NCBI GenBank assembly: GCA_023247055.1
Contig: JAHFHF010000007.1
Location: 2,186 to 66,185, forward strand
Direction: 5' to 3'
Source of the DNA: Candidatus Omnitrophota bacterium
GTDB taxonomy: Bacteria; Omnitrophota; Omnitrophia; Omnitrophales; Aquincolibacteriaceae
DNA: 64,000 nucleotides
The translations under genes were made by a program, and so were the position numbers. How positions within the stretch are numbered: position 1 is the first letter of the stretch; each line of letters opens with the position of its first letter. A model generated the notes under the pieces. The model made no database searches. It worked only from the letters and a program-made list of their open reading frames with translations, and had not been told where the DNA came from. Of this stretch, positions 2,599-51,720 are shown one piece after another.

Positions 2599-2676
2599 AT
2601 TTGTCATTGCACGGCGGCGTTTTAGTAAGGCCGAAGCAATCTCGGAGATTGCTTCGCTTCGCTCGCAATGACAAAA
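2599..2676. repeat. palindromic repeat element, family A copy 1 (TTTGTCATTGC...GCAATGACAAA), between rplY and prs
   Basis: Terminal inverted repeats TTTGTCATTGC / GCAATGACAAA. Internal palindrome AAGGCCGAAGCAATCTCGGAGATTGCTTCG. Confidence 0.8.
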
Positions 2677-9248: not shown

Positions 9249-9352
9249 CTGTTTGTCATTGCGAGACAGGATACCAGTAAGGCCGAAGCCATCTTTCTGA
9301 TCGAGATTGCTTCGGCCTTAGAGTGGTCGCTGCCTCGCAACGACAAACAGGA
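9249..9352. repeat. family A palindromic element, copy 2, upstream of ispE
   Basis: CCTGTTTGTCATTGCGAG ... AAGGCCGAAGC...GCTTCGGCCTT ... CTCGCAACGACAAACAGG. Outer stem 18 bp, inner stem 11 bp. Confidence 0.8.
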
Positions 9353-11693: not shown

Positions 11694-11720
11694 GGTGGGG
11701 GGGGATAAACTAGCCCGACG

Positions 11721-14809: not shown

Positions 14810-16224
14810 GGTTTTTGTTTAAATAATTGCAATTCCTGTTCCAACGCATAGCCGGCACGCAGCAGCGTGGTTTCTTCAAAAGGACGGCCCATAAGCTGCA
14901 GGCCGATGGGCAGTTTGCCGCCGGCAAAGCCGCAGGGCACTGACAGCGCGGGCACACCGGCTAAATTGGCCGGAATGGTGAAGATGTCTGAAAGGTACAT
15001 CGCAATGGGATCGGCTGTTTTCTCGCCGATTTTAAAGGCCGGGGTCGGGGTCGTCGGCCCGAGAATAAGGTCGACTTCTTTAAACGCTTTCTGAAAATCA
15101 TCGCGGATCAGGGTGCGCACTTTCTGGCCCTGCCGGTAATAGGCATCGTAGTAACCTGCGGACAACACAAACGTCCCGAGCAAAATGCGACGTTTGGCCT
15201 CGGCGCCAAAGCCTTCGCTGCGGGTATTGAAATAAAGCTCTTTCAAGTCTTTGCCCGGCATTCTGGCACCGTAACGTACGCCATCATAGCGGCCCAGGTT
15301 GGAACTGGCTTCAGCGACGGCCACAATGTAGTAAACCGCCACCGAGTGGGGCGTATGCGGCAGCGAGACGGTGCGGATTTCAGCGCCAAGCTTGCGGTAA
15401 ATTTCAGCCGCATCGCGTACGCTTTTCTCAATTTCAGGATCAAGGCCTTCAATAAAAAATTCTTTAGGCAAACCGATCTTAAGGCCGCGCATATCTTTTT
15501 GCAAAGCGCCTGTGTAATCCGGCACCGTCATTTTGGCTGAGGTGGAATCGCGTGCATCATGCCCGGCGAGAATGTTCATCATCAGCGCCGTATCTTCGAC
15601 GGTTTTTGTAATGGGTCCGATCTGATCAAAACTCGATCCGAAAGCAATCAGGCCGTAACGTGAAACCAGACCGTAAGTTGGCTTCAAACCCACCACGCCG
15701 CAAAAAGCCGCCGGTTGACGAATCGAACCGCCCGTGTCGCTGCCCAATGCGGCAAAAGCCATGTCTGCGGCCACAGCCGCGGCCGAACCGCCGCTGGAAC
15801 CGCCGGGAACCCGTTCCAAATCCCACGGGTTACGCACCGGTCCATGCGCGGAAGTCTCAGAAGAAGACCCAAAAGCAAACTCATCCATATTGGCTTGCGC
15901 AAAAATGACGCCGCCGGCCTGTTTAATTTTTTCAACCGCTGCTGCGTCATACGGCGGAATATGCCCTTTAAGGATTTTAGAAGCACACGTTGTTTCCCAG
16001 CCGTCGATGCAGATATTGTCTTTGATCGCAATAGGAATGCCGGACAGCAGCAGGCCTTGCGCGCCGGATTGACTGACTGCCTTGGCCGCATCAAAGCGCA
16101 CAAACGCATTGATCTTAGGATTGAGCGCCGCCGCACGGTTACGAACAGAGGCCAGGACGCCGGCGCTGTCTTCGCGCGCCGCCTTTTGGGCTTCCTTTAA
16201 AGTCAGGGAGAAATACTCGGACAT
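14797..16224 (-). CDS. gatA: glutamyl-tRNA(Gln) amidotransferase subunit A
   Basis: 475 aa amidase-signature protein ([13 protein letters not shown], Ser-cisSer-Lys triad context). Confidence 0.9.
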
Positions 16225-17033: not shown

Positions 17034-17077
17034 GGTGCCAGGCCCCTGCTGGCACCTGGTGGTGGTGCCAGGCACCC
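17034..17077. promoter_or_regulatory. GGTGCCAGG palindromic motif in the rlmH / HDAC-like divergent intergenic region
   Basis: GGTGCCAGGCCCCTGCTGGCACC (8-bp inverted repeat) followed by GGTGCCAGGCACC. Confidence 0.5.
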
Positions 17078-18100: not shown

Positions 18101-18231
18101 TCCCCCCTCTTAATCTCCCCCCGGAAAGCACGGAGGGAGAAATAAAAAAGATTCTAGAGTGGCCCCCCTATTTTTCGGGAGAAACGGTTTTGGTTCTATT
18201 TCCTCCCCCGTGCTCTCCGGGGGAGGACTAA
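18101..18231. repeat. family B repeat copy 2, between the convergent HDAC-like gene and giant-gene ends
   Basis: TCCCCCCTCTTAATCTCCCCCCGGAAAGCACGGAGGGAGAAATAAAAAAG ... TTTCCTCCCCCGTGCTCTCCGGGGGAGGACTAA. About 90 percent identical to copy 1. Confidence 0.8.
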
Positions 18232-18336: not shown

Positions 18337-21300
18337 TTAAGCGGAGATCGCAACCGCGAACTGATTGAGGAAATCGGCGGCAAGACGCGCGAGTGATTCT
18401 GAAATCACATACAGGCCGTTCTCACGCCGGATGGCCCAGCGAATGCCCGGCGCATCCGGGTCGTAACTCAAGGCCGCAGCCAACGTACCGGCACGTTCAC
18501 GCAGCAAACGAAACATGCGGATATTTTTTTGGGCCGGCCTGCTAAACCCGCTTTCATCCGAATTGGAAGCCCGTGTAAAGGCCACCACACGTCCTTCTTT
18601 CAACCTTGGGCTTAAGGCTTGATAGGCTTCTTCAGCGCTGCTTGCCGTCCAACTTACATTCGTAAAACCCCGAAACAATCGTTTAAACCGCAGCAGGCTT
18701 GAGTGGCTGCTGCGTGCGTTAAAAATCACAAAGCGCACCGCGCTGCGCTGTTTCATCACAATGACAGCCTCACGAATTTGTTCATCCGACAGCGCAGCCA
18801 GATCATCTAAACTCAATAGTGCTGTCTTCGCGGCATGCACGGGCTGGTTCCAAAATGTCAATTGTTGGGGTTGTGTGCCACGCTGGCTGCCCGGCAACCG
18901 GGGATTTAACTCCGCAAGCGATGCACTCGCAGATTTTGAATGTTTCTGCGTTCTGCGCAATTCGGCGCGTACAACCCAAGACCGTTCAAAGCGATTCAAG
19001 AGTTGGGCACTTTGAAAATGGAGGCGCTCAAGATCTGTTTTAATTTGGCTTAATTTTTTAAGATCCTCCGCTGAAAATAGCGCCTGACGCGAGGCCGTTA
19101 AAGCCGCATCGGACAAAGGCCGTGCCACACTCGCAGACGAAAAGAAGGCCTGTTCGTGATACTGATTCAGCGGTGATTTTTCAATCGTCTCGATCACCTG
19201 AATCGTCGCCCATAATTCCATGACTGTGTTCCTCAGCTGATTCCAAGACATATCTCGCCCATGGTCATGCCACGGTTTAAAAATGGCTACCAGCCCTTGA
19301 GAAAGCGTCTTCCAAAACGCAAGATTTTTTTCCTTTTCAGCATACTGTCCCGGCAGCAGTTCTTCGGACATCGTGCGTCTTTCGCGGACAATCAATTCGG
19401 ATGCAGCCGCGAGAATATCGAGCAGGGTATTCTTGGCTTCTTCGGAGGAGAGACGCGGATTTTGCGATGCAAGGCTTTCTTTGACTGTGGTACTTAAAGC
19501 AAACTCATATGGACCGTCCGCACCGGCCGTAGTTTGAAATCCATACTGTTCTAAGAGTTCCTGCGCTTTGGCCGGTGTACCGCCACTGTACTCTGCCAAC
19601 GGACGGATAGAGACCTGCTCACGCACGGCCGCTGCTTGCAAAATACGGCCTTTCAAACGGCGTTCCCTTTCAAAGTCTTTTTTCCACGCGTCATCCGCCG
19701 CTCTTTCATCCTCAAAAAACGCTCTCTGAAGAACGCGCACTTCGGACCGCTGCGCAGGATCACTCTGACCACGCCGGGTTTCTGCATCCACAATGCGAAG
19801 TTGTATTTTTAATAAAGTTCTCGCTTTAAATACGCCGTAGAGGATGCCGGGAATAAGGCCCAGCAATCCCGAAAGATGAGAACCCAGTGGTGCAGGAATC
19901 AGTCCCGCTCGCGCAAGTAGGATGCCAGCCGTTTCAACAATACCCGACGGCATTATAATCAATAGTGCGACGCTAAGCAGAAACATGAACCACCAACGCG
20001 CCCCAAAGCTTTCTCTTAGAAGCTCCCGCTTGGCTTCAAAGGATTCGGCGCTGATCGTGGGTTTCTTCTTCGCAAGAGCAGCATTCCAATGCCCCATTTC
20101 GAACATCGCTTCAAATTCGGTCGCCATATTTAAACCTGAATTCTTAAACTTTGTGACCGATTTTTGAAACTCTTCAAGATAGGCCCAGAGAATCCTGTTA
20201 TATACACCTTCGAAATCGATCTTCTCCGGTTCGGGAGAGGCCGAAGAGGGAGAAACCGTGCGTACTTCGGAGCGCTGGTGACGATAATCCAAAGGTACGT
20301 CGCGGCCCAACTCCATCAGCTGGCCTTTGGCCTGGGCGCGCAATTCCTGAAGGAAGGACTTGGGCAGGCTGTGCTCAACACGCTTGTGACGATAGTAATG
20401 CGCCAAAGGGTAAAGCAGCGCCACGGCGATGAACATACCGCCCAAGGCAATCCCAATATTCGCGAGCCTGAAATTGACCATGGCTTTGCCTGCGATAAAA
20501 ACGGCCGCGGCCGTTATGCCTAGGGTGGGAAGCAGCATCCGTTTTTCAAAAGTTTTTTGCGCTTGGTTGATCCGGTCAAGATTCCGGTTGGCATTATCCA
20601 GCATATCCAGCAGTTCGCTCTCGCGCTTTTCCTGAACGAGCTGCAAGACCGTCCGGCGGATTTCGTCAAACTGGGCTTCCGGGTTCGCCAAGACAGGCAT
20701 GTGCTCCATGGCATCAAAAGCCGGGGGCAAATCCAGCCGGAGCATTTGCGGACTAGCCTGATCATCCTGATGATTCAGCCAATAAGCGTATCCCACAAGA
20801 ACCGCCAGCGCCGCATATCCCGCAACCTGCGCCATCATGGCATACTTAGCGTCAAGGAATTGCAGACATAACGCAATTAAATAAACGAACAAAGCCGCCA
20901 TCATGGCCAGAACAAGACCTGTGGGATAATACTCCTCAAAAAAATCCCAAAACCCAGCCCGGCCGGATTGAATTTTATCCAAGTCTTTCAAGGCTGCTTC
21001 CAAAGAGGCCTTCTGGGTTTTGTCCCGCTCAAGAAGATGTATCCTTTTCCGGCCAAACGCGCTTGTGTTGACGCTCAAACTTTGCTGCACAGCCTGAAGC
21101 GCCAATTCGATTTTATAACGGGCAGTCAAAAAATAACGGTGGTCAAGATCTTGAAGCGCGCTCTTCAGAAGGTCTTTATTACCGCGCTGGGCATAGCTGT
21201 CATAAAAAACGGAAAAAAGCCGGGCTTGGAGGCTGATAAAATAAGGATTCCATTTGAGCCAGCGCCGGCTCAGCGAAGGGTATTCTTTTTGCAAATCTTT

Positions 21301-24300
21301 CCAGGCCTGAAACTGGACAAGCCAGAAAATTTTAGGCACTGGAGCATCCGGCCCGGCCGAGGCGGGCTCGCCGGCCGCATTTTGCTGCTGATGTTCTTCG
21401 GCTTCAACCGCATTTTGAATGGTTTCCAGCAAGCGCGCTAAATCCATTTTCTTCGGATTGGAATTAACGTAAAAAAAATATTTTCTGGAATCTTCACGCG
21501 TCTCGATCTCATGCAGATAAAATCCCGTGCTCCGCCAGCCGGCGACACTCTTCTGCGCGATCCTATCGATAGTTTCTCGGGCCTCATCCGACGCAGCGTC
21601 AGTGTATTCTTCATGCCACATGGCCGTAAACTCGGCATCGTTGAGAGGCCCGAAACGCACCTCGTGCTTGAGCCCATCGTTTTGTTTTAAAGCTTTCAGC
21701 GTCTCGTTGACCCGCCTAAGCAAAATCGCCGTTGTGTCCTGCGTTTCTGTTTGAGACGTCTCTTTCAGCGGATAGCGCGCCTCAAGCCGGCGCCAGGATT
21801 CAAATTCCTCCAGCCAAGCATTGTCGATATTGCGATGCAAAACCGACTTCATATCCTGCAAAATGCCGTTCCAGGGTATCTGAGAATATCGCGCGTCAAC
21901 AAAATAAAGATGTTTAAACTTAGCGTCCCGGAAGCCTGTTGCAGCAGAGGACTCAATGCGTTCATAAAGAGGACTGCGCAGATACGTGGCATTCAGGAAA
22001 CCTTTTTCACGCAACTCCTGATTGAGATGCCTCCCGCTGCTAGCTTGCAAGGGGGCAATTATCTCCTGCCAACGGGGATCTTGCGTAGTCAGAACTGTCA
22101 ATTCATGGAGATAGGGCAGAAAATCCGATTTAATTCCCGCTAAAACACGGTTGACGTCCACCGTAAAGGTCTCGATCTCCGCATGGCTGACGCGAACTTC
22201 GGAACGTCCAGTTCCGAAGTCGTCTGCCTGCACTTCGGAGAGGCTTGGCATAATCCATTTATTTTGTGAAAAATAATAAATATATTGACTAATAAGCATT
22301 CCTACGATATCCTGCCCACTGATCAAACCTTGATGGAGCGCCGCTATGGAAAACAATTCTGATCTCTCAGCCAAATGGGCTTTTGCGGCCAAGAGCCTTA
22401 TGACCTTTGCCCAAATTTTGACAACCGGAGCATTGGCAACAAAGCTTTTTAGTGAGCTCCCAATACCCTGGAGAATGGCCGTCGCCATTGGAGTTTTTTT
22501 GTTGATTATCGTAGCTATCCTGATATATCCTGCCGGTACAAAGGAACCCAATTGATATGGAAATCCCCATTCTTCTTTCTGTGATGGCCATCGGTATTTA
22601 TATCTGGTACCTGATTGATCAACACCAGATGAAAAAACGAAAGCAGTCTCACTAATTCCAAATGTATCCAGAAATTTTAATCGCCGTGATGGTGCCCTTT
22701 TTAGGAGCTTTTGTCTGGTATCTGATTGATCAGAACCGAATGCGAAAACGGAAACAGCCGCATTAATTTTTTTCTTTTTTAGCCCTTCCCGCATTTCTGA
22801 ACGCATGGCTGGCATAGCCGCTTGCTCCTGTAACAACCGTTCTACGGCGGCGGCATAATCCTGCACGGCCTTGGGCACATCCGGATTTTCGATAGGCGAT
22901 TTACTCAGGCTGCCGGCCATGCCGCGTCCACCGGCCTCCTCATAGCCCTGCGCCCTCAAATCTTGCCAGAAAGGCTCCGATAAATTTAAAAAGCGGCCGT
23001 CAGCATCCATAAACGTACGGATTTTGAATAAACGCGCAGGTCTCCCCGATCTCGGCGCAGCCGCCTTGACGGGCGTCGATACCACGATGGCTGAAATGCC
23101 CCTGAGCAAATCGGGCCGTTCCGAGCTCAGATATTGATAGGCCGAGGAACTCCAAACTTCTTTGGCTTCGTCATCAGGCACATAAAAGAAAAGCACGGGT
23201 CCGGCTTTACGCACCGTGCCTTGAGGCAGTCCCGGCACATCGAAACCGCCGCGCTGAATCATTTTTGCAATTACTTCGCGGTTTGTAAAATCACGCTGCG
23301 CGCCCCGGGCAAATAAATCGGCCATTTCCGGATCATCCGCTTGCAGGCGTCCCCTCTGGATGGCTTCATAAAGCCCGGCGGCGGAATAGGTCTTTCCTAG
23401 TTGCAACCCAAAGAACAGCGCGGAGCGGACTTTACGAATACCCTCCTCATAGGCCCATTCACCGGCAACTACTTTTTCTTCGATGGCTAAGAGGGTATTG
23501 TAAAAAATGAGCATGGTGTTCTGAGACTCTGCGTCCTGCGGCATCATTAGGTAGTCATTGAAAAGGGCAGCATTCGATAAAATCGAATGATGCGTCCGGA
23601 GAAATGCCGCATCGCCGGCATGCTCCATCACGAAATGCGAAAGCAGGATATCGGCATCGGCGTGGTCCATCAGCGCAAAAGAACGTTCCTGCAGTTTCTG
23701 AATTAAGGCGGTTTCATGATGCGCATGCAGGTAAAGCAGAAAATCGATCAAAAGCACCGTAGTGCTGATGGAGGCAAGCACGGGAAAATCATAATGATGG
23801 TCGATATGAAAAAGCCCGGGGTTTACTTTTAATCTGCCTAAAAAATCGCGAAACAATGTTTCGCGTTCTGCGGGAGTCAAAACTTGATACGGTTTATCGC
23901 GTAATGAAGCCGGCGTCCGCAGATTCACAATGTTGGATTCTCCCATCAAGGGATTTTTTGGGTTAAAATCCTGGATCCGCAGAATGCGTTGTTGGCCAAT
24001 ATCTCTGTGCTGTTCAAAGTAATCAAAAAGCATTTTAAAAACCCGGTCAGCCTGCGGAATTTTTTTGCGGCTGGCATAGAAGTATTTTGGAGTCAACTCC
24101 ACGCGCGCTGCCGGCGGCAAAATCATACTCAAACGGGCCTGCAACTCATCCAGCGGCAGGTCCGGTTCAGCAGCAAGTTCCTCTAATTGAACAAACATCT
24201 CTCTGGCGAGCCGCCGGACACGCGCCCCTTCCAGCCGGTCCATGTCTCGATGGGCGTGGTCAGCCGCTTCACGAATGCCGGTCCGCAGCATTTCAATTTC

Positions 24301-27300
24301 TTCACGGCTCACGCCAAAAAGCGTTTCAAAGTGCCCCCATTGGACGATTTTTTGCAGCATCTGGGGCCAATAGATTTGGGCCATGCGAAAAATACGGTCG
24401 GCATAGGCCTGATTGACTTCATGCCCTGCGTGAAACGTGTCTTGCATATAACGGAGGCGCGCGACCACGGAACCGCCAAAGTAAGAAAGGATCACTCTCC
24501 GGCGCTGGGCAGGCGTCGTCAGATCATCCGCAATCCTGCGCACAAACCGGCTGACAAAATAATCATGATACGCATCGCTTTCATGCCCAGTGACGTTAAG
24601 CTGCTCGGTCCGCAGCATGCCTCTCCATGCCCCCAGCGAAATATCTCCGTTGGCTTCGGCGCTTAGGCGCCGGTTCGCTTGCTGCTGTGCATAAGCATCC
24701 CGGTAAGTGTCATGCTGCTGAATTTCGGCCATGGGCATCAGGTCGATCAAGACCTGCCAAATCGTCTTTGGCGGCTGTTTACTCCCCCTCAGCCGCGGCA
24801 GCCACTTACGGATCTTTTCGGCCCGCTGCCGGCGCAAACGCCAGCGTTCCACGTATTGGTAAACAATATCCGGGTTCTGGCTTAAAGCTTCACTTAAAAG
24901 CGCGCCCCAAACCACCGATTCATCGACAGCCAAACCCTCCTCCAGTAAAACGCGGCCCGCTTTGACAAAACGCACGTAACGCTGTTTTTCGCGGCCCGCT
25001 TCCAAAAGCACCGCCCGGATCTCCTTCAAAATAGTTTTTTCAAAATGGTCGCCGGCGGAAAGTTTTTCTTCGATAAATTTAAAATCATTTTCAAAGTTCC
25101 GGAGCGCCTGCTTGCGCACCCGCTCCGTAATTCCCAAAATATAATTGTCCAGAATCTGGCGATAGTATTTTTGCTCGTTCTGTTCGGCCATGGTCTGAAA
25201 CCGTTCCAGAAAAAATCGCAAGACTACCCGGACGATGATGACAGACAAAACGAGGTCTATAAGATCCACGCGTACTTTCCAAAATTCAAAAACCGTGAAT
25301 TGTCGAATGACGCTTAAGAAATTATCGAAATTGAGCACATAACGAAAGGCTGCCAAGAAACCGGCAAACATCAGAAACAAAATAGGTATCCCAACCGTGG
25401 ACGCTAAATTCTCGACCGCTTCGGTGCTCATCAGCGTATTGCTTCGAAGCCAGCGGCGCTGCCAAGAGTGTGGCAGGATGGCGTTGGCATAGCCATGTTT
25501 GACAAAGTCCGGCACATGCACGTCGCCGCGCAGGTATTTTTTAATGAGCGTCTCGGCCATGTCCTGGCCCAAGCGCAGCATCCGCTCATGTTCTTTGACC
25601 GTGAATGCGTTTTTTTGCGCCGGCAGATCAAAAGACGGCACTCTCCAGGCTTCGGTCGTTAAATTTTGTTCCAAAATATGCGGCCGGACAATGCCATCGA
25701 TAAAAAAGCGCCGCGAGACCACCGGATCATAAAATTTCATCTGCACCAGCGATCCCTGCGGACCGGTCAAATGCTCCTTAGAATCCACAAAATCACGGCG
25801 GATCTGGCCCCGCAGATTGACCCGGTAATACTTGCGCCATTCCCCGGATTCTTCATAGGCGCGCAGCGTATTGGCAATTTGCCGCATCATGGCGGTTTCA
25901 AACTCCAAGAGTTCTTTTGGCGTTAATTGGGCCACATAATCATCATAACGATCCGCATTGAAATTGAGACGCGATTGTCCGGCTTTCAGAGAAGGGTCCG
26001 GCTTTGCGGTTTTTTGCCGCAGCAGGCGCTGAAACCACGGCGTATTTTTCATCCTAGTTTTATAGGACTGCCGCGCGCCATAGCGCAAGACCAGCGGGCT
26101 GATCGGCACGTCTGTTTCCGCGGCGGCAGGGCTGCGCATTTCAGATCGCGCAGTCGTTTCCGGCACAAACTGACCTTCGGAAACGAAAACGGGGTGCGGA
26201 AAATGGCTCCCGATATAACCGCCGCCCGGAATTGTCTCTGCGGTAATTTCGAGGGTTCCGTCTTTAACTTTGAAAATATTTCTGGTGCCGATGAGCGTTT
26301 CGACTGCCACCCGGCTGTTTTTTGAAAGATCAAAAACTCTTGGTGTTCTGGACACCTGGTCCTGGTAAAACCGGCGCGCGCTGGTAATCGGCTGCAGATA
26401 AATTTCAGAAGGCTTGTCCGGATTTTGAAAAAAAACATCCGGTCCTCCGCCATTCCCCATGATGACGACTCCGCCGTTTTCAAACATGGCCGGCTTAATG
26501 ACGGCCTTGCCGCCCGTGCGTTTGGAATCAAGCCGCCGCGTGCGCCGAAAGACACCGGCGGGGAACGCCGTAATGCCAAGGCCCGGAATCACAGAAGCAG
26601 AGGCCGGCGGCTCTGGCTCTGCTTTGTTCGCGGAGCGGAAATCCGCATGATAAAGCCCTCCGAGCGCATCGATTCCGTCCGGATGGCTGATCTGAAAACG
26701 ACCGTCCGATAGCGCTTCGAAACGTATCTTTTGGAGAATAACCGGCTGGGGCGTCCATAAATCCATAACGGCCAGCGGTGCCCGCAAACCTTCCCATTTT
26801 TCGCCGGCTGTCATATGAAAGAAAAAAATGAAACGCGGATTGCTGGTAAAACGCCTAATCATATAATCCGTGCCTCCATTTTCAATGAAAAGCCCGCTGG
26901 GGAAACGCGCTGTCTCAAAAACCCCGCGCCCGAATATAATTTCTTTTTTATTTCCGGAAATTTGTACTGCTCCGGAAATTTGCACGGCGTCAGCGCCGAA
27001 TTCCGGCACAGGCGCCCGAAAATCACTCCAGTTCCTGCCTTTCACGTGCACCGCCACAGGCTGGAATAAAGCGGCCGCGCGATAATCCACATACCATTCG
27101 CCTTCCAAATTGCCGGGATAGAATTGATTGCCCAGCCGGGCAAGAATTCTGCCGGAGGGCAGGCGGATGACGACCTGGCGTGTCTGGTCACCAGGCGCCA
27201 GCGGCGGCTCTTCGCCTTTAAAAGCGGCGCCATAGTGTGCCAGCATCTTCCGGAGTTTGGCTACGGTGGCTGGGTCAACCTCGGATTCTTGCAGCAAGGT

Positions 27301-30300
27301 GTCGGCGCTTATCTGCGTCAGATCATAAGCGGTCTTTATACGGAGTTTCCTTCTAGCGGCAGAAAAACCCAAACTTATGAGGTGGTATCGCCCGATCAAA
27401 AGATCCATATCCAAATTCCGCAGAAACACCTCGACGGCCGATTCATTCTTCAGCGCCAAACGCAGTTCGGCCAATTTGTTTCGAACTTCCTCGAGACTTA
27501 TAAGGCCAAACCCACGAATGGTAAGCAGCTCATCGGCAGATTTTTGTGTCAGTTCACCCAGCGTCGTAATGCCAAAATGGTGCGTCATTTTTCGTGCGCG
27601 GACACTCAAATCTAGCGTTGAAACAGGCTGATCAAGCAGTTCTGAATTTTTAAAATTCCGGCCTTGATGTTGCGCTTCGACGATTTCGACGCGCAAGCCC
27701 AGATGGTTTTCATTCCCGCTTACAGCGTGCGGGATTGACAGGCTGGGCAGCCATTTTTGTGAGTTAAAAAAACTGTCCAGTAATTGGATTTTTTCTGGAG
27801 ACGACAGACTGAAGTTTGTATTTTCGCGCGAAAGAATGGCGGCGAGACGCTCGGCCTCGGGCGGTATCTGCTCCAAATCAAAACCGGCGGCCAGCCACTC
27901 GGGCCAGGACTGCCGGCTGTCTGCCGGCCTGTCGCGAATCATGGCCTGGATGCGGCTTTCTCTGAGCATATGACCGGCGAGTTTGCGCGCATGGATGGCT
28001 TGGCCAGCCATCAGATGTTTAAAATAACCCGGCGTAAGCGCCGCCAGCATTAGAAACGCCAGCTTGCGGGCTAACGCCGAATTAAATTCCTTAGACAGAG
28101 TTTCAAGCAAAACGGCCTGCGCTTCTTTGCGCAAATTTTCATAGGGCAGGATTTTTTCACGCATCTGGCGGCTCAAAAGCGGCAAGGCACCGGCTTCCTC
28201 TTCGAGAGTCAGCGGGTTTTCATCTTCCTGCAGAAGGCCCAGGCGTTTGAGAAAATTCTTAATCATGATGAAGTCCCAATCCTCATACTCGCCCTCAACA
28301 TCCTGAACCCCATCGGCTGCATATTGCGGATTCAGATACCACTGGCCTTGCAAATTACCGGCGTTATAGCCCGTGCCGAGCCGCCCCAGCACTTGCCTGT
28401 GATGGCTGTATTTTGATACGACGCTAACTTGGGCGGGTTGAAACCCTTGATAAATCCAGGGTTCCGGCCGGCCTGCTTTCCTGCTGCCGCCGTCAATCCG
28501 TACTTCAAAAGACTCGAAATCAAACCGTGCTTTTTGAGTCTTTTTCCACTCCTTGATAAAATCGTGCAAAAGTGCGTCTCGAGATAAAGACGCCTCAATG
28601 TACCTGCCAAGACCATACATGGCCCATCCCGCAGCCTGGCGCGTCTGGCTCAGTTGATCCCGCGCAGCCCGGTCCGTCAACTGACGGCTGTCGGTCATCC
28701 GCACCAAACCGTCGATTTGTTTTTCGCGCGCCAACTCAGCCATGAGTGTTTTCCGAGTTATTTTCGAGGGGTCATCCACAAATTGAGCGGCAAGCCGCGG
28801 TGTAACGGCAAAATAAATCCTCTGAATAACTTCCCAAGTATCCGCAAACTTCGAATCCTGCAAGATTTTCAAAAGCGGCGCGTGCACGCGCTCCCAGGCA
28901 GACTCGGCCCAAAATTCTTGATCCATGGCCCGGTCGAAAAAAGTATCCCTGACAAAATCCCCAAACATAGGTTGATCCATAAAAACGGGCGTATCGGGCA
29001 TTTGACTCAAATGCGAATGCGTCACCAGCCCAACCCCGCCGGTGCCCGTCACTTCAAAACGGTAATCCGGCCCTAAAATCTGGCTGACTTTAAAAAGATC
29101 AACGCGCAATTTTTCCAATTGGGCGCGTGTCTTGGCATCTTCGGGTTCTTCGCCGGCCGGCCGGACCTCCGGTTGATTGCCGGCCGCTTCAAAGGCGCTG
29201 TCCCAATGCCATTGGCCGATCAAATTATCCGGCCGGTACCCGGTACCCAGCACAGCCACCTTCACCTCGGCGCCCTTGGGCTTTTTGGCCATAATCGCAA
29301 CTTCAAGCGAATTTGACTTTTCTATCGGCGTAATCTGAATTCTCAAAGACGGATCAAAGCTATTGAGTTGGTCCCGGGCATTGCCGTCGCCCACAAAATT
29401 ATGAAAATCCAAAATCAGCCCGTCTTTGAGATTGGAACTGTCATCAAACGCCTGAAGGACTCCATGCTTGGCCAAAAGCCCGGCAATACGGGAAGTCTTG
29501 TAATCCCACATCCAGCGTTTCTCAGCTAAATCGTTTCGCTTATGGGCCCAGGCTTTGCCATCCATCCCTGCGTTGGCAGTCAAGTTTGTTTTAATTTCTT
29601 TTTCAAGGGCTTGATAATAACTTTCTTCGACAAGCCGCGCCCGTACATCGCGGCCGGCCTTCAAAGACGGTTCTGACTCGGCAAACAGAATGCGAAAAAT
29701 GTTTTCCATCCAGTCTTTTTTATCTGGATGTTTATCTTTCGAAAGTTTTCCATCCAGACCAAATAATTCGTGGATTCCTAAAACCACTTTTTGAATCGCC
29801 GCCTCCCTCGACGCTGATTGTTCCGAAGTCATAGCCACGGCTTCGTCAAATTGTGTTAGGACGGCATCGCGCAACTTTTCGGCATCTTCTTCAGGCGTAA
29901 GGCTGTTGGGCCCAGGAGGAAGACCAAAATCGTTTCTAAGAAAAATGACCAGGAGTTCTTGGATAAATGCTTCATATTTCTTGTTCTGTGATTTATCTTG
30001 CGCCGCCGGACTTGGAATAAATTGCAGACTCAGTTTGGCCGCGGCTTTCAAAAGTTGCGGCGCCTGGCCGGTTTCGGGCACAGCCGGCGGTAATTTGTCG
30101 GAGCTGCGGTGCTTGAGGAGGAAATTTAAAAAATGCGGGTAAGCCATAAAAAAGCCGTCATTGCGAGACACCTGCCGCTTTTTGACGGGTGTCGAAGCAA
30201 TCTCGGACGCTGATATGACTTCGTTCCCTGCGCCTCCTCGCAATGACAAAATAGCCGCGGCAGAAGGCAGCGCGGCGCTTTCGATAAAAAGATAAAACAG

Positions 30301-33300
30301 ATTGGTTTGGACCGGGTCCAAAGCTTCCAGGGCGCTTAAAATTTCAGGGGCCTCTAATTTTTCACGAAAATAACGCAGCCCGGCCAGCAAAGCGGCGGCG
30401 GGCTCCTTGGGATAAAGCGCATCCGCATGCAGTGAAACCAGAAGCTGCAGCAGAGCCTGTTGTTTTGGCGTGGAACGGGCTTTTTTCAGCAAATACGGAT
30501 CAACCCAAAAGGTTTTTCCTTTCAGGCTCACCCCCGATAAAAGAGGCTCGGGGCTGATGCGGAATTGAAAGCCGGCGACCGCGAATTTTTCAAGCAGGCT
30601 GCCATCCGTGATCAGCTTGGCGGATAGCGGACGGCCCAGGTTTTCGTTCTGCTCCGGCTCATTTTGAGACGGCCTCGTTTTAGGACGGCCCCGGTGTTTG
30701 GCTTGGGCAGGTTCAGCAGCTTCCTGGCCGAGATATTCGCGAAATTGGCGCAAAACAGCTTCGACATCGCGCTCGCGATGAGTCTGGAAATATTCGAGTT
30801 TCTGGATTAAAGGCGTAAGATATTTGTCTTCCGGCTGCCGGGTTAAAATTTCGCGGGCTTTTTGATGCAGGCTCTGAATCAGTTCATCCGAAGGTTCTTG
30901 GCGCAATAGCGCCAAAAATTCTCTCTTGAGACGGAGCAAAGCCTGATCCGCGGGTGTTTTTTGCTTTGGCCGCAAGACTCTGTCGGCCAACGGAATTTTC
31001 GTCTCCGACCAGGTCTTCAGAACATCGGAAACACGAACTCTCGGGCCGGTCATTTCCGCAGCCGGTGCCACAGGTTTCCGGCGCGCAAGCTGGTTCGTGG
31101 CCCGGAAATCCCGCTGGATTTCAAGCCCGTCGGGATCAAGTTTTTTCATATCTTGCAGCGAAAAGACCTTATGCTTTTTCTTGCGCGCCAAAAGAAAAGT
31201 CGCGTTTTCTACCATCTGCCGGGTCAAAGCATCCAGTTCGGGAATTTCCCCTAGCGAAACTTTGTCATTTAAAATTTCGAAATCAAATGTTTCACTGAGA
31301 AATTTCTTGGCCTTGTCCGTAAAAACGCCGTTATGGTCCCAAAGCAAAAGCAAGCCGCCTTCCGTCACCGATTGGGCAGCCTGAACCAAGGCCCAGTTTT
31401 TCATGCTCACGCCATGCTTGTTTCGGATTCTTCCGGGCGGTTTGGCAATTTCAGAGGACGAAACAAAGTCAAAATGATTTTGCGGCAGCGCATCCTGATA
31501 CAAATCGTAATCACTTTGGCCGGCTGGCTGTTGCGGAAAATGCTGCTCAAGCTGCCAGGCCCGGCCCAAACCGCGGGCCTGAGCGGAACTGTCGACTTCA
31601 AAGTAGCTGAAATTGCGGACGGGAATCTTTTGGCGTGCGAAAAGCGCTTCCATCTGCGCCAAAACACGCAGATCCACCGAAGGGCCGGAAGCTAAAAAGG
31701 CCCAGCGCGGCGCCGGCGCGCCCTGCGCAGTCCGGTTTAAATCGATCGTCCCCTTTTCGTGCAAATGTAAAAGATGGCCATAAAGCGCTTCGGTCGCGGG
31801 TGTTGCTGCCACATCGTTAATCGCGGAAGCGTAAAGCGCCATGCCCTGGTCCCACAAAGCCTGGGCTTGGTCATTTTTGCCTTCATACAACCGGCTGTAA
31901 ACTTGCGCAAGCCAATGACGCACTTCCTGAGCAATGGTTTTACGTTTGGCGCGGCGCTTTTCGCGATCCTCAAGCTGTTTGATATTGCGGCGCATGTGGT
32001 CCATGCGGAGTTTGCCGCGGATAATCTGATCAAACAGCGATTCTTTGTGTTTTAAAATATCTAAAATGTCATCATCGACCGTATCGGCCACGACAAACGC
32101 ATACACCCGCACTTCTTTATCCTGGCCAATGCGGTAGACGCGGCCGATGGCCTGGTCCAGCTTGGCATTGGTGTAGGGCAGGTCCGTCAGTAAAACATGG
32201 TTGGCCTTGAGCGTATGCCCTTCGCCGCTCAGATCAATCGTGCTGAGAAAAACTTTTTGATCGAGGTCCTTGTTAAACCGGGCAATCACTCCTTCGCGAA
32301 GTTTGGGATCTTTATGCGTCTTACTGTCCAGATAAGCGACGGCCTCCGCCCCCATTTCTTTGGCCAGCATGTCTTTCAGGCGCTGAACCACCTTGCGGTA
32401 ACGGCTAAAAATCACAGCCCTTTCTCCGGAAGCGGCAATGGCCTTTATTTTTTCAATTACCGCGCGGTACTTGGCCGGCGAATCATGCCGCACCGGTTCC
32501 GAAGCGCGCAACAGTTCCAGCACAGGCCCACGCAAAAGCTCAAGACTTTCATAATATTCACGTTCATCGCGGCCTGATTTGGATACTAACAAGGACTCAT
32601 CCATTGAGGCCCTGACCCGCTCAAGCAACTCTTCATGGGTCCGGTCCGCGTCAGGCATCAACGGTTTGAGGAGACGCAGATCGATCAACGTTTTGACTTT
32701 TCGCAGCAGTGCTTCAAACTTTTTAGTCTTGGCGGTTCGGAGATCTTTTTCAGAGACCGCCAAAAGCTCCAGATCAATCAGAATTTGTTTCTGCTTTTCA
32801 AAATGCGCAAACGTCTCCATCTGCCTTTGATTGCCGAGCGCGTATTGATGATCTTCTTCTTCCAAAACAGCCTTCTGGGCTGGGTCGATTGTCACAGGAA
32901 TTATTTCAAGCGGGTGTTTTTTGGGAAGGTATCCCATGACTTGCGTAATGGTGCGGCGCAGAAAATATTTCTGATTGAGTTCAATATTGAGCTGCGCCAG
33001 ATGCAGCGGATCTTCGGTCACTTCCGCGCTAAAGCTGTCAAAATCCGGAAAGCGGGCGGGGTCTGCGGCATTCAACGCCACAAACAAATCGCCCACGCCA
33101 TTGACCACCGTCGTGCCCGAAAGATAAATCGCCGCCGCCTTATCTTTTTTAAGCCGGATAAACTGCTTGGATCTTTGGGTCTCGGGATTGCGCAGCCAGT
33201 GGATTTCATCGCCGATGATAAAATCCGGCGCCCAGGTATTGAGGGCATCCACCAAGGCTCCGCCGGTCTTGGCCGCGCCCAGGGCCTGGTAGCTCATGAG

Positions 33301-36300
33301 AATAAAACGCACACCTTCGTTTTGGACCTGTTTTAATTTTGCGAGGCGGCCGCTGCTGGGTCCGTCAATCACAGCCACTTTTTGATCTTGCCCGAGCCAC
33401 TTCGTAATTTCATTCTGCCAATTGGCCAAAAGATGATTCGGCGCCATGATCAAAACTTGTTTGGCGCCCGCATCCTGCGCTGCGATCAGCGCCTGAATCG
33501 TTTTACCCACGCCCATATCGTCGGCCAGAATGACACGGCCCGCATTTTCATGCCTGGCGAAATAAACTCCGGCGATCTGATGCAGCATCAATTCCGACGG
33601 ACTGATCGGGCCGCCGTTTCCGTTGCCATTGGTGTAATGCACATACTGCTGATAATTTTTCTGCTGCAGCGCCGCATAATAATTTTTAATCTGCTGATAA
33701 ATGGCCTGTAACTCTGCCGCCGCACCGGGGGGAGCCGTCTTAAACCAGGCTGCCGCTATTTGAAGGGCCTTTTGTGCTGTGGTTTTTTCAGGATCTTTGG
33801 GCAGCTTGAGCGCCGCCTCCAGCAGGGCATTGTAAATGCGCGTGATGATTTGGCGTTTGATCACTTCCCGGATCTCCTGCTGCACTTCGCTTGAAAATGA
33901 AGCTGCGGCAGGAGTATGCCAATATTGGCTAAGGGCCTTTTGCATTTTTTCGCCCATCAGTGTTTCGTGGCTAAAGGGCTGGATGTGATTATTGCTTTCG
34001 TAATCGAGAAACTTTTCGCTGATTAGGGCCAGCAGCGATTTCACCGGAAAATCCGGGTGCCGTTTCGCAAAAAGATAAAAGAGCGCGGCCTGGCCCTGAT
34101 CGGTATTGAAAAGATGCATCCAGGAATCCATGTCCATCTCTTCGGCGATTTGATTAAAAGACTGCCGCTGGCCGGCATTGATATGTTTCTCTAAATCGAG
34201 GCGCTGAGCGGCTTCTTCCTGGCCTTTGTAGGCAATTTTGTTTTTACTGAGTAAAAATTCGAGCGTCGAAACCGCAGAACCCTGCTTCTGACGCAGTTCG
34301 TCGTAATAACGATAAAGCGTATCAAGCCCGTAAGGCTTGGCCGCTTGGCTTAGCCGCAAGAGCGGCGTTTGCCTGAAAATCCGCTCCGCCTCGGCGCGGT
34401 CCAGCCGCATCCACTGATCGAGTGTCAATCCGGCGGATTGAAGTAAAAGCTGTACCAAAAAGCGGATCTGTGAAGGACTGCGCTTAGCCCAATCCACTTT
34501 TTGCGGATCCGTCAGCCAGGGGTCTGCGGCCCCTGCGGCCTCTTGGTGGCGCATCTCAGAGCGCGCAAATTTCGGAGTTAGAAGTTTGAAGTTGGAGGTT
34601 GGAAGATTCGAGCGGTCGGAAAATTCGGGATGAAATCTATTTTCTTTTTTACTTCCAACTTCCAACGTCCAACTTCCAACTTTTTGGCGCATCTCAGAGC
34701 GCTGCAGGGGCCGGGCCCCTTTTGCTTTTCTCTTGGGGGCGGGCTTGAAAATGATTTCTAATTCCCATCGCTGCAGATCAGGCACACCGGATAAAACGGC
34801 CAGCCGTTCCTGCGCACTCGCCCGGGCGTATTCTTCCTTGAGTAAAAATTCAGCCAGCTTGAGCGCATTCTCACGCGAAATGGTTGGCCGCACTTTATGG
34901 GTCTTGGTTGTCTTCCCTGTAAACCACCAGAAGACTGTCCAGACATTCACGCCGACAGCATCCACGATGGGTCTATAAGAAACAGGCGATTTGCCTCGGC
35001 TGGGATATTTGGCTGCCGCCACACGAGCGGCATTTTGCAGAAAATGTTTCTTAAACTGACGCACCTGTTTGCGCCGCGCCTGGGTCCCCGCACGATCATC
35101 CAGATGACCGCGAATAAACCATTTCCCGGGAACTTTGATTAAAGTCTGACGCTGTGTTTCCGAAAGAACGACTTCGTCATTGCGAGGCTCCCGCTGCTTT
35201 TTGGCGGGCGGCGAAGCAATCTTCAGCCCGGAATTTGCCGCAGTCTTTGCGGCGCCTTGTAAGGCATTTCCCCTTTGGGGCGGCGCGCGGTCTTTGCTAG
35301 CCGTTTTAGGCGATGCCGTTTTTTTCTTTTTCCCCGCCTCATAAGGAAAAAACACTTCAAGCTGTGCCGGCGTTAAATCAGGATTGCCGGCCATCCGCGC
35401 CAAAAGCTTATGACTTGAATCGTGCGGATAAGTACTCTTCAGTAAAAATTCAGAGGCCAACAAGGCATTTTCCCTGGAAATGATCCGTCGCTTGATCCAG
35501 TGCGTGATCATGCCCGCATGCCCGCGCCCTCGCGTTTTTACCAGATGCGGCGAGACATAGTCTGCCAGATTTTGGAGTATGACTTTATTTGTCCTTTTTT
35601 GCAGCAAAAGCATTGTTTCCAAATTATCAAAAAAGCTATCTCGAAGTTTGGCCGTGTCCGAAAATCCTCGGACTTGCCGCAATGTTTTCCACACTTCAAG
35701 CCCTTCAAGCGCCGGCGCTACAGAGCGCATCTCAGACCTAGCCCGAGCATCATCCGAAGCTGGCCTTCGGCGTATTTCGCTTCGCATGGGGTTCACGATT
35801 CGGGCAGTATCGAACACTTTATTTTTTAAATTAAAATTAAATAAATATTGATTTAAAATAAATACTCGGATATTATGTTTTATCCAAATAAAAATACGGG
35901 CGATCGCATGAAGATAGGGACTCTTCGAGATGAAAGACAAGACACGCCGGTATGAAACCGGTAAAATGCTGATTGATTTATCAAAATATTTTGCGACGGC
36001 AATTGCCGCCGGTACTATTGCCAGCGGCCGATTTGATTGGGGAGTCGTCATTACCGGGCTAGTGCTGGCATTTCTAAGCTGGGCTATCGGATTTGTAACC
36101 ATCCCGGAGGATAAGGAGAGCAAATGAGTAATTTTGAAGTCTTTGCCATTGGCTTCGTTGTTTTCGTCTCGATGGTCGGATTGATTGTGGCGATTAATCA
36201 CCGCTTGAGTGAGCGGCAGCGTCCCCATCCGCCCCACGGCACTTAAGCTGGGGATGCGACGAATTTCTGAGCGCTGCGCTTGAAGAATTTGGCCGTAACG

Positions 36301-39300
36301 CATCAGAGCCGCCCGCATCACAGGCTCAGCCGTTGTACGGATAAGCTCGAGATACTCCAGACGCGCTTGAAAAAGCCGCTCCAAAATTTCAATTTTGCTT
36401 TCCTCAGACTGCCGGCCAAATGAACTCCAAAGATTATCCCAATCCCGAAGCCGGTGCTCCACTTGAGCGGGGGCTTGATGAATAACCTCACTGCCGCCCT
36501 CGCCCCATAAAATCATTTCAGGGCGCGAGAGCTCCGAATGTAAAATGATTTCAAAAAACTCTTTTGACAGCACCTCCAATTTCGCAGACAGAAACCGTGC
36601 TTGGCCATCCCGCCGGATATCCTCGAGAAAAAGACCAGCACCTTCAATTTCATGATCCAAACCGCCAAGAAACCACGCCGCGCCCCGCAGGCTTGCCTGC
36701 TGTAAAGTTTCGTCGTCGTTTTCTTTAAAAAAAACATCGGCTCCGAGCGCCCAAAGCCGGCCCCCGCTATTGGACGTATTCAGTTCTGAAAGTACTGTCA
36801 TCGGATCTTGAACCAATTCCGGAAACATCCCGCTCCAAGGCGCGGGCAGATCGAACAGTTGTGAAAATTTTTGATAAAAATTCAACGCCTCCGGCCGCGT
36901 ATGAGGCCAAAATCTTTCCGCCCAGATTTTAGCCCAGCTGCTGAAACCATCCAGATACACGCCGGCCAAATTAACCGGCTCTGAACCCGGCAGCCATTCT
37001 TGTTTCATGCCCGGCCGCGGATCTCGAATAAAAACGCCCGTGGTCTTTAACGCCTCGACTTCATTCGTTTGGCGATAGCGGGCATATACTTCTATCGCCA
37101 ACGCGTTGAAAGGATAAGTCATGAAATCAGAAACGTATTGACCATAGGCCGCATTCAATCGTTCTGCCTGATGATCCCAAACTTCAGAACCTGTGCGATT
37201 GATAAATTCCAAAGCAGAATCAGAAAAAAGCGAGAACTGCCGGAAGTCCTTGGCGTGCGTCAAATCAAGCTGTCTCATTTTGGCCGTCGCTGCTGCGATC
37301 GGCGGTGTATGGAATAAAATTCCAACAAACCAACTTAAAATCTCGTTTATAATGGTCGTTATAGCGTTGTTTATTCTCGGTATTATCTTAGCCGACAAAC
37401 TAGACAACAAAGGACGGTAACTCCATGTTTGGTCTTGTAACCATCTTTCTCCTATTTTCCACGGTCGCTCTATGGATTGCATTGGAGAGGTATTTTTTAA
37501 ATCGCCGAAAGCATTAAGCCTGCTCGGCTGAATTTGCCTCAATTCTGACCGAGCCTCTCCCCCAATCTGATCCCATGTTTCAGTCACAGTAATCAAACGC
37601 ATAAAAAAATCTTCGAGTGCTTGGGGAGTGCGTCCAAAACTTGCCGGCGTGAAAATAAGCTTTTTCGGAGCCGTCGCTTCATGCCAGAGTTGTTGAAGTG
37701 TCATAGCGCTATCATCTGATTTTTTTTCTGCGGCTTGGATGAGATAACTGGCAAGCGGATACTGGGTAAGCAAAAAGTCGTACGCATGGTGAGAATCCCA
37801 CATCCCATCATCCAAATGCGCAATGCGGTTCTTAAATTCTTCAGGTGTCATCTTGTGGCCAAACATTAAAAACGAGTAAAGCCGGATAAACATCTCAAAA
37901 TTCGCAAAAGGCCCATAGTTTTCAGGTTCTGGAATCGCCCGTTCATCAAGCTCCCATTTCAAAGTTTCCATAATACGTTCAGGTGCGGTCTTCTTAGCAA
38001 GTTCCGCATAAAGCATCTGGCTCAAACTCAACGCATGCGCCATTTGTTTTACAAACTTCGGGCTCTGAAAATTCCATGTACGTTCTCCATCTGCAAGTTT
38101 CCACACTGCGGGATTCTGCCCCCGAACCTCCGATCGCCCAACAGCATCCCGATTCTTTGGTTCAACACCCTTGGCTCTTGTCTCAAGCAGCTGTGCTTTG
38201 AGGCTGCCTTGACCAGCCATGGTTCTTAGGCTAGTCTTCGAAAAGGGAGAAATATTCCATGCAAAAAGTTGCCGTAACACTACTACCCAAGCAAGCTGAG
38301 ATTTTGATTGAACAGCTTGTTCAAAATCTGGATTTTGAAGCCAAATACCGTTTGGTCCAGAAACTACAGCGTGAAATGCGCCGCGCCCGCTGGGAACCCC
38401 TGGTTCTGAAAATGCGGCGGCGTTTTGCCTCAAAACCCCTTTCTTCCCGTCAAATCCGGCGGCTCTGTGAACAGGTCCGCCAAGAACGGTTTGAGCGTGC
38501 GGGTCGTCGTTGACACCAACGTTTTTATTGCCGCCCTTCTGCAAGGGAATACTCCCCGAAAAGTCTACGATTTCCCCCCCCCTCACTTCCGAGCGATAAG
38601 ATTCCGCGTTTCCAAGAAGAGATTTGAGTGTTTTGAATTTCCACGGGCCAAGACGCGCCTGATTGATCGTGAGCGTTGCTTCCACATCCAGCCATTCGGG
38701 CGGAATATGCATCAAGAAGCCGGCGTCGTCGCCTTTGAAAAGAACCTGCTGTTTCATTTCAAGCCAGGGAATGTCTTTGAGCGATTGATAATGACTGCGG
38801 ACTTCTTCAGGCAGTTTTGCACCCAGGCCCAGCGAAGGATCAAGCGCCCAGGTTTTCTTTTCGTCTATCGAATCCGATTCGATCAAATGTGTGCTAGGCA
38901 CACGAAAGATCAGAACAATATCATTTTTTTCAGGCCCTCGTTTTTCAACGCTTTCCTGATCCCGGTAAAAAACAGTCCTCCAGGGCAATTGGTAAAGGCC
39001 GTACCAGGCAATCAAATCGATGGTTTTAAGGCCTTTGCTCGAGTCATGTATAACGTGATAGACAAGGCTGTCTCCGGTCTCTGCTGCTTTTTTGTAATTC
39101 GATCCTTCAGCATGGACCTCATAGGCTGTGGTTTTACCACCGCTGCGCACGATCGAAGCCGCGGCCGGAATCGAGCGATATAAATGCAAAGAAGCTTCGG
39201 GAAGCGTGCGTTCCAAGCCGCCGGGCTGCCAATCATGGGTTTTGATGACTCTCAGCTTATCGCCCGTGTTAAATCCATTGGGCAGCTCGTACAGCTCGAG

Positions 39301-47623: not shown

Positions 47624-49309
<1,686 letters not shown>

Positions 49310-49338: not shown

Positions 49339-49425
49339 CGTCATTCTGAGCGCAGCGAAGAATCTCAGAGCAAAAAAAGATTCTTCGCGGTCCTGCGCAA
49401 ATCGCAGGCAGTTCAGAATGACAAA
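49339..49425. repeat. family A-prime palindromic element (GTCATTCTGAGCG...TTCAGAATGAC), upstream of groES
   Basis: CGTCATTCTGAGCGCAGCGAAGAATCTCAGAGC...AGATTCTTCGCGG...GTTCAGAATGACAAA. Same design as family A with diverged arms. Confidence 0.75.
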
Positions 49426-49747: not shown

Positions 49748-49863
49748 TTTGTCATTGCGAGCCCATCAAAGTTTGAAGGGCGAAGCAATCTTGGTTTTTT
49801 AGATTGCCGCGTCGTCCGCTAATAAAGAAGCGGACCCTGCTGCTGCAGGTCGCAATGACAAAA
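49748..49863. repeat. family A palindromic element, copy 4, between groES and groEL2
   Basis: TTTGTCATTGCGAGCCC...GGCGAAGCAATCTTGG...GGTCGCAATGACAAAA. Confidence 0.8.
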
Positions 49864-51631: not shown

Positions 51632-51720
51632 TTTGTCATTCTGAACGGACAGAGAACAATTTAAATGTCGCGAAGAATCTCCGAACAATCTGAGATCCTT
51701 CGCTGCGCTCAGGATGACCC
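51632..51720. repeat. family A-prime palindromic element, downstream of groEL2
   Basis: TTTGTCATTCTGAACGG...CGCGAAGAATCTCCGAACAATCTGAGATCCTTCGC...CTCAGGATGAC. Confidence 0.7.

Follow-up and report, generated by a model that had tools for sequence, protein, structure and literature searches.

Several classes of short palindromic repeat have been described in bacteria. Repetitive extragenic palindromic (REP) sequences number more than 100 per genome, and RAYT, a single-copy gene for a Y1/HUH (Y1_Tnp) transposase, usually has them on its flanks (PMC2817692, PMC3116915); several enterobacterial REPs have the apex GCGNAGC (PMC2817692, Table 1), which forms an ultra-stable DNA mini-hairpin (PMC13037366). 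Rickettsia palindromic elements (RPEs), of about 150 bp, were reported from Rickettsia (Ogata et al. 2000, as reviewed in PMC10969869), and the miniature transposable elements with inverted repeats (MITEs) of bacteria include Correia, ERIC and Nezha (PMC10969869). Here we describe a palindromic element at positions 30156-30248 of a 64,000-nucleotide stretch of Candidatus Omnitrophota contig JAHFHF010000007.1 (the window, for which all positions are given). The element belongs to a hairpin family, called family A, with further copies between genes of the window, and it lies in frame inside an open reading frame (ORF) for a giant protein of 7,954 aa. It probably arose by insertion of a non-autonomous hairpin repeat, REP/REPIN-like in kind, into a tolerant linker between two modules of that protein.

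Membership of family A, proposed in the initial annotation, is borne out. The element shares its architecture with the intergenic doublets of the window (Table 1), and an alignment of the window's four doublets reads TTTGTCATTGCGAG - variable - CGAAGCAATCT - loop - AGATTGCTTCG - variable - CTCGCAATGACAAA. Its terminal inverted repeats are, as first reported, GTCATTGCGAG at 30157-30167 on the forward strand and the perfect (11/11) complement CTCGCAATGAC at 30237-30247, with the core GTCGAAGCAATCTCGGACGC between the two termini at 30192-30211. The boundaries, given previously as 30157-30250, need to be moved; the natural edges [C]GTC...GAC[A] give 30156-30248, or 93 nt. With at most one mismatch allowed, the 11-mer terminus occurs eight times in the window against 1.24 expected, a count reached by none of 100 shuffles. 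The left half-unit matches the two conserved boxes of the family at 21 of 21 positions, has a compensated inner stem and scores 19.9 bits (E 0.023) with a covariance model built from 54 foreign units only. The right half-unit is degenerate and carries CGAAGTCATATC where CGAAGCAATCTC is expected.

The element is also truly in frame within coding sequence, in agreement with the initial annotation. The giant ORF, on the minus strand at 18337-42201, reads through it and translates it as ILSLRGGAGNEVISASEIASTPVKKRQVSRNDGFF (aa 3984-4018). When codon usage is scored as log-odds, with the window's remaining genes as training set, frame 0 of the giant ORF has a mean of 0.20, against -0.32 and -0.44 for the other frames, and no low-scoring windows occur between aa 2175 and 4550, so that frame 0 is coding on both sides of the element. 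The 93-nt doublet is stop-free in three of six frames, of which the giant gene uses one. A second in-frame copy, overlooked in the initial annotation, lies about 5 kb away at 35175-35222. Over 48 nt it shares 85% identity with 30156-30203, and it is stop-free in five of six frames. A candidate decayed right half for this copy was rejected, its alignment score being 14 against a null mean of 14.7, which leaves a solo unit. Both in-gene lengths, 93 nt and 48 nt, are divisible by three. In total the window holds seven confident family A units and two doublets of a related type, A-prime. The giant gene, which makes up 37% of the window, carries two of the seven, and the remaining coding sequence, about 33 kb, carries none. 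In both intragenic copies the inner stems are longer and bear T-rich loops in place of the GCGNAGC apex.

The full palindrome consists of two hairpin units arranged head-out. As defined from 234 half-units, taken from at least 119 genome stretches plus the window, the unit is a hairpin of 26-60 nt in which a 5' GTC and a closing C flank a lower stem of 5 bp (in family A, ATTGC/GCAAT). Its interior comprises a purine-rich internal loop, GAG opposite CGAA, which is readable as tandem sheared G.A pairs, and a variable upper stem-loop that is often a GCGNAGC mini-hairpin. The conserved part is [C/T]GTCATTGCGAG ... CGAAGCAATC[T/C]C, beyond which the flanks are variable, and the head is [C/T]GTCA in 228 units. 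The inner segment forms a stem-loop whose sequence is free, such as CCGCC-AAC-GGCGG, GTCCC-GGA-GGGAC or CTCGCC-GTA-GGCGAG, and often takes the form GA-GCGNAGC-GA; GCGAAGC, GCGTAGC, GCGCAGC or GCGGAGC, with further GA steps on the flanks, is the commonest apex.

Both stems of the unit covary. Inner stems of at least 4 bp are present in 37% of units against 9% of shuffles. Among 54 distinct 32-nt units, 82% of cells are paired, both sides change in 7 of 10 pairs, and the covariation score is 0.162, compared with 0.060 for shuffles (0 of 500 reach the observed value) and at most 0.074 for slid partners. Compensated variants of the lower stem include ACTGC/GCAGT, ATTCT/AGAAT, ATCCT/AGGAT, ACCGC/GCGGT and ATTCC/GGAAT, and a scan for such variants returned 240 complementary units as against 6 in a non-complementary control. 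The A-prime copies represent the same hairpin as family A, with compensatory changes in the lower stem (ATTCT/AGAAT, ATCCT/AGGAT). Among close neighbour pairs, head-out doublets are in the majority (49 of 81); units also occur solo and in same-strand arrays (for instance L004, L038 and L054).

To survey other genomes, one genome per species was scanned with GTCATTGCGAG-N10-40-CGAAGCAATCT, the 22 specified bases being matched exactly. Exact unit matches come from at least 119 genome stretches, of both metagenome-assembled genomes (MAGs) and isolates, in many phyla. Among the matches listed are Chloroflexota, Patescibacteria, Planctomycetota, Desulfobacterota, Bacteroidota, Alpha- and Gammaproteobacteria, Atribacterota, Omnitrophica and Elusimicrobiota, with Chloroflexus, Chryseobacterium, Pedobacter and Bosea as cultured carriers. 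A genome of Tisiphia (Rickettsiaceae; L048) likewise carries family A units. Outside chromosomes, at least 120 viral contigs of IMG/VR contain exact matches. So do plasmids from Methylosinus, Methylocystis, Calothrix and Halomonas, and in these plasmids no match coincides with an annotated feature. Among the matches listed, solo intergenic units in genomes are balanced in orientation (17 sense, 15 antisense), and units in viral contigs are mostly solo and strongly co-oriented. The sense bias in viral contigs (43:25 intergenic, 62:22 in ORFs) was discarded as evidence for a function in RNA, being confounded by spurious ORFs that run through stop-free units. Rfam covariance models gave no match to the elements, whether at gathering score or with E values as high as 10, and a full-text search of the literature for the DNA boxes, the typical peptides and RSEMR, a peptide motif of the giant protein discussed below, returned nothing relevant. 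Two known structures were considered and rejected: the hammerhead ribozyme, of which the GA-[stem]-GAA core is reminiscent but the CUGA box is missing, and the integron attC site, the R''/R' boxes of which (RYYYAAC / GTTRRRY) are absent on inspection.

In-frame occurrence is a general property of this hairpin family. Most units (198 of 234) are stop-free in four to five of six frames, and 21 of the 234, about 9%, lie inside ORFs with 80 or more codons to either side. That such copies sit in real genes is confirmed by Pfam domains spanning the insert, as in the GATase domain of a GMP synthase (L023), the adenylation domain of an ATP-dependent DNA ligase, which is split by it (L037), a PfkB kinase from an Omnitrophica MAG (L043), an O-antigen ligase-like protein (Wzy_C; L119) and a PD-(D/E)XK nuclease (L019). 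In the case of a viral ORF family of about 500 aa (IMG/VR contigs L133, L160, L181, L199 and L205), an identical in-frame doublet, here head-in, is found at one position (..EIATPSARNDSPFVSLRGA.HRSNLVKVTE..), which implies stable inheritance of the element inside a phage gene. Since units are stop-free in most frames, a copy with a length divisible by three can survive in a gene where the extra residues are harmless.

Pfam matches in the giant protein are limited to an SNF2 helicase domain and a domain like the C-terminal one of RNA polymerase alpha. Of the 39 relatives of its N-terminal module, every named one belongs to Candidatus Omnitrophota. The same module (aa 1-480) occurs as a stand-alone 431-aa protein with unrelated neighbours in another metagenomic genome (L120 10001-11296), so the giant protein is a fusion of modules able to exist apart. 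An exhaustive phmmer search with aa 3450-4640 against 1.84 billion representatives returned 6 homologues only, of which the best four (P0001-P0004) are giant proteins of 1,460-3,751 aa with 27-31% identity. Their alignments end at query positions 501-534, and the element begins at 535; with a profile hidden Markov model (HMM) built from three homologues, the alignment ends at LPSA(A), 1-3 residues ahead of the element. The peptide that the element encodes is absent from P0001-P0004. Judged by eye, the linker at this site measures 47 aa in the giant protein and 18-22 aa in P0002-P0004, and the residues past the element, YPHFLNFLLKHRSS, resemble KAFQKFLEEHRNS, ALYQNFIEDWRNT and PALERFISYHRNN of the homologues; a MAFFT alignment mis-paired RND with HRN. 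A continuation of homology after the element is suggestive, not proven. The second copy also lies in a linker, which separates two helix-turn-helix-like repeats and spans 53 aa, compared with 16 aa in P0001 (again by eye). At the DNA level, the P0001 locus holds one family A unit, intergenic, and none in its giant gene, and the P0003 and P0005 loci hold none. A word-indexed protein search with aa 3701-4400 gave no match, and a metagenome scan for close relatives found none; these searches showed no empty site. We infer that the event was an insertion here and not a loss in the homologues.

The hairpin family shares a number of features with the REP/BIME/REPIN-RAYT systems: short imperfect-palindrome hairpins with a conserved unpaired 5' head and compensated stem variation (PMC2817692, PMC3116915), occurrence as solo units, arrays and, chiefly, inverted doublets with a spacer, a lack of target-site duplication, and a mainly intergenic location between co-directional genes, with the same GCGNAGC apex in enterobacterial REPs. 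It differs in its head, which is GTCA where REPs have GT[AG]G. Moreover, REPIN-RAYT systems are lineage-specific and vertically inherited, whereas the boxes of the hairpin family are identical across phyla, phage contigs and plasmids. About 9% of its units lie inside long ORFs, and no RAYT was seen in the window or beside units elsewhere. With RPEs it shares the presence of palindromic repeats in frame in unrelated protein genes, where a peptide is added at tolerant sites and the protein is not destroyed; RPEs are, however, about 150 bp long and described in Rickettsia, whereas the hairpin family measures 26-120 nt and spans many phyla, the two being compared by description. Like the bacterial MITEs, it is small, non-coding and non-autonomous, has terminal inverted repeats (TTTGTCATTGCGAG / CTCGCAATGACAAA) and occasionally gives in-frame fusions (PMC10969869). 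Unlike them, it makes no target-site duplications (67 of 72 doublets are without one, which is the null level), and its functional unit is half of the 'MITE', found also solo and in same-strand arrays. The d(GCGNAGC) mini-hairpin (PMC13037366) is the same as the commonest unit apex but is a structural motif and not a genetic element. The initial annotation had proposed a tolerated MITE-like insertion. A small palindromic element of mobile type that is tolerated in the gene does fit an intergenic family that recurs in frame elsewhere and is absent here from P0001-P0004; the MITE-like label does not fit a REP-like hairpin unit without duplications beyond chance.

Two units in head-out, inverted orientation make up the doublet of about 90 nt. 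Copies spread without target-site duplication and, on the reading that we favour, would do so as a folded single strand. The lack of duplications, the GTC head that the hairpin leaves unpaired and the apex formed by the mini-hairpin point to a process of RAYT/IS200 type, one that acts on single strands and is specific for structure. The strand would be handled in trans by an enzyme not encoded nearby, for which a Y1/HUH-type transposase such as RAYT serves as the model; alternatively, copies could spread by template switching at hairpins. The 93-nt doublet and the 48-nt solo unit would have landed in variable linkers at module boundaries of the 7,954-aa protein, and both would simply be translated, adding 31 and 16 residues that are presumably neutral.

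A number of points weigh against this reading. No transposase of any kind is encoded in the 64-kb window, the genes of which include ssb, pth, the L25 gene, prs, clpX, hisG, gatA, gatB, tsaD, tsaB, alr, birA, coaX, groES and two groEL. The 229 ORFs adjoining units in other genomes are housekeeping genes, with no Pfam family or transposase enriched, and no insertion sequence with matching termini was seen in the window or in the neighbour ORFs, no dedicated search for one having been made; the mobilising enzyme is therefore conjecture. The GTCA head and the identical boxes across phyla and phages are unlike classical REPs, and the identity of the boxes across phyla could point to a conserved host function instead of selfish spread. 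The covariation fits folding at the RNA level as well as folding of DNA. With homologues just 27-31% identical, insertion here is not distinguishable from loss elsewhere, and deletion of the element takes the HMM score from 43.3 to just 44.2, a gain of less than 1 bit, which leaves the resumption of homology after it undemonstrated. Lastly, a 9-nt imperfect direct repeat (8/9) abuts the copy, AAAAAAGCC at 30148-30156 and AAAATAGCC at 30248-30256. It is unique among 72 doublets (0 of 71 others), the null expectation for a 9-nt match being about 0.0, and a model without duplication leaves it unexplained.

The giant protein also contains 15 RSE[MVLI]R motifs (Table 1), against about 0.2 expected by chance by our own estimate. 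Their codons vary synonymously, so the motif is selected at the protein level. All long homologues have it (5 in P0001, 5 in P0005, 2-3 in P0003 and P0004), and in P0001 one lies about 30 aa past the module whose end meets the element in the giant protein. These motifs may be polyprotein cleavage or junction sites. Four islands of low coding score, in which the frame stays open, are bracketed by RSExR (38136-38595, 37300-37550, 35740-36270 and 22210-22800); small ORFs on the opposite strand lie in the islands (Table 1) and have sub-threshold Pfam matches only (DUF6722, E 2e-4; DUF3784, 1e-4; PIN_3, 0.016). A further in-frame palindromic element of the giant ORF, GTTGGAAGTTGGACGTTGGAAGTTGGAAG ... 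CTTCCAACCTCCAACTTCAAACTTC at 34565-34680 (region 34542-34702), lies between two copies of an 18-nt direct repeat, GCGCTCTGAGATGCGCCA, each of which encodes RSEMR. Motifs, islands and palindromes suggest a polyprotein-like architecture tolerating in-frame foreign DNA.

A wider interpretation, which we hold to be unlikely, is that the hairpin is not simply a further selfish repeat of one lineage but a structure-selected module of many phyla and phages, read by widely conserved single-stranded DNA or RNA machinery, and that the giant gene is an RSE[MVLI]R-punctuated polyprotein serving as a sink for in-frame DNA. If true, the cleavable or flexible junctions of giant genes would regularly gain new linker sequence through repeat insertion. 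The sink would then hold the hairpins, the second palindrome with its duplicated RSEMR codons, and the low-coding islands with their possible antisense mini-genes.

Other explanations of the element at 30156-30248 fare less well. One is exaptation, the peptide of about 31 residues now being a needed flexible linker kept by protein-level selection. Exaptation has been proposed for RPEs (PMC10969869). The linker length varies among homologues, and the viral contigs that share one ORF with an in-frame doublet in the same place suggest long-term retention. We nevertheless judge it distinctly improbable here, given that the termini are perfect (11/11) in DNA, which suggests a fairly recent copy over long protein-level drift; no orthologue is close enough for dN/dS.

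Still less probable, in our estimation, is the other proposal of the initial annotation, that the hairpin has a function within the giant mRNA, marking a site where the 24-kb transcript is paused, processed or segmented. It would act in cis, with processing by RNase, and be kept in frame because it is needed. The mRNA-sense strand does fold to -39 kcal/mol (z -3.2), the copy sits exactly at the end of a conserved module, intergenic copies lie between co-transcribed genes (groES-groEL) as with mRNA-stabilising REPs, and the units of viral contigs are co-oriented. Nevertheless, the right half-unit has decayed (10.2 bits), the other intragenic copy is a solo half-unit, and the homologous giant genes are without both. 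Units occur in frame in unrelated enzymes in either orientation, and both giant-gene copies are antisense to the mRNA relative to the canonical GTC...C unit. What does recur where modules of this protein family meet is the RSE[MVLI]R motif, a mark at the peptide level. The proposal thus finds no support.

The edge repeat bears on a third alternative, that the insertion fused two ORFs that had been separate. Taking AAAAAAGCC / AAAATAGCC as a target duplication would make the insert 100 nt long, not divisible by three and hence frame-shifting. The repeat has no counterpart in the other doublets, an ATG (MAYPHF...) lies directly after the element, and detectable homology ends at the element. We regard such a fusion as very improbable even so, because P0002-P0004 run on as one protein through the site, FLxxHRN-like similarity is visible by eye past the element (FLNFLLKHRSS vs FQKFLEEHRNS, FIEDWRNT and FISYHRNN), no Shine-Dalgarno sequence precedes the ATG, and the family as a whole makes no duplications. 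That there was no insertion and the likeness to family A is chance or convergent coding sequence, as the degenerate right half might hint, is scarcely credible in view of the complete box matches with a compensated inner stem, the perfect 11-nt termini, the E of 0.023 from a foreign-unit model and the 85% identity over 48 nt to the copy 5 kb away.

Table 1. Hairpin copies of the window and features of the giant gene; positions are nucleotides of the window unless marked aa.
Feature	Position	Strand	Remarks
Family A inverted doublet	30156..30248	.	93 nt = 31 codons; in frame in giant ORF, aa 3984-4015
Left half-unit hairpin, GTC-ATTGC-GAG-[ACACC..GGTGT stem-loop]-CGAA-GCAAT-C	30157..30202	+	antisense to giant gene; 0 mismatches in both conserved boxes
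Right half-unit, degenerate	30212..30247	-	tail CGAAGTCATATC; covariance model 10.2 bits, E 3.4; alignment
Second in-frame copy, solo half-unit	35175..35222	+	48 nt, 16 codons; aa 2327-2343 (KIASPPAKKQREPRND); 16.7 bits, E 0.12
Intergenic family A doublet	2599..2676	.	between L25 gene and prs; 34.5 and 17.7 bits
Intergenic family A doublet	9249..9348	.	between GHMP kinase gene and hisG; -64.5 kcal/mol, z -11
Intergenic family A doublet	49748..49863	.	between groES and second groEL; 34.7 bits
A-prime doublet	49339..49425	.	lower stem ATTCT/AGAAT
A-prime doublet	51632..51720	.	lower stems ATTCT/AGAAT and ATCCT/AGGAT
Host gene, 7,954-aa ORF	18337..42201	-	SNF2 helicase domain, RNA polymerase alpha C-terminal domain-like domain, 15 RSE[MVLI]R motifs
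RSE[MVLI]R motifs	aa 713, 732, 1203, 1356, 1551, 1977, 2140, 2155, 2501, 2547, 5352, 6467, 6666, 7310, 7485		
Small ORF in island	22346-22555	+	69 aa
Small ORF in island	35930-36127	+	65 aa
Small ORF in island	36124-36246	+	40 aa
Small ORF in island	37193-37420	+	75 aa
Small ORF in island	38259-38513	+	84 aa; then PIN-like N-terminus (VVVDTNVFIAALL)

The window holds several other repeats. A 43-nt sequence, GGTGCCAGGCCCCTGCTGGCACCTGGTGGTGGTGCCAGGCACC, at 17034-17076 has a 91% reverse complement 26.7 kb apart at 43759-43801, the pair bracketing a deacetylase gene, the giant gene and a 429-aa ORF; its 13-mer core occurs six times against 0.03 expected. It is possible that the pair delimits a large island or serves as a shared operator. 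The C-rich palindromic repeat CCCCCCTCTTAATCTCCCCCCGRAAAGCACGGRGGGAGAAATAAAA has four arms at two intergenic sites (11594-11703 and 18102-18231), one of them just downstream of the giant gene, and gives weak miRNA-like Rfam noise only. A separate family, with heptamer-like units AGTCGTG / ACTCAAG, is found at 9660-9702, 14305-14395, 14761-14811, 51532-51582, 51753-51802 and 58123-58246; its inverted pairs flank genes or gene groups, for instance 14305-14345 with 14774-14809 and 51538-51580 with 51753-51795. Three tandem 59-nt repeats (region 8156-8342) adjoin the only tRNA gene of the window (8093-8163), and a perfect 81-nt tandem duplication (region 9389-9550) lies beside the doublet at 9249. 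The chaperonin genes have the order groEL - groES - groEL (47651-49309, 49447-49737 and 49913-51535); DNA identity between the two groEL copies is 70-78%, and both groEL/groES spacers are filled with hairpin repeats.

To our knowledge, in-frame 'selfish' palindromes are textbook matter only for Rickettsia. The present family widens that precedent to many phyla, phage contigs and core enzymes, and to two sites within one giant gene. Being absent from Rfam and unannotated in the matching plasmid records, it gives rise to spurious or chimeric protein predictions that contain SLRG..RSNL, VIAS..KQS, EIAS..RND or LLAMT peptides. Its conservation across phyla, together with compensated stems and a lack of duplication, raises the question of which enzyme or host factor reads the hairpin. 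In the giant gene of this Omnitrophota genome, an inserted hairpin repeat of this kind would mark a tolerant junction between modules, not a functional segmentation signal.

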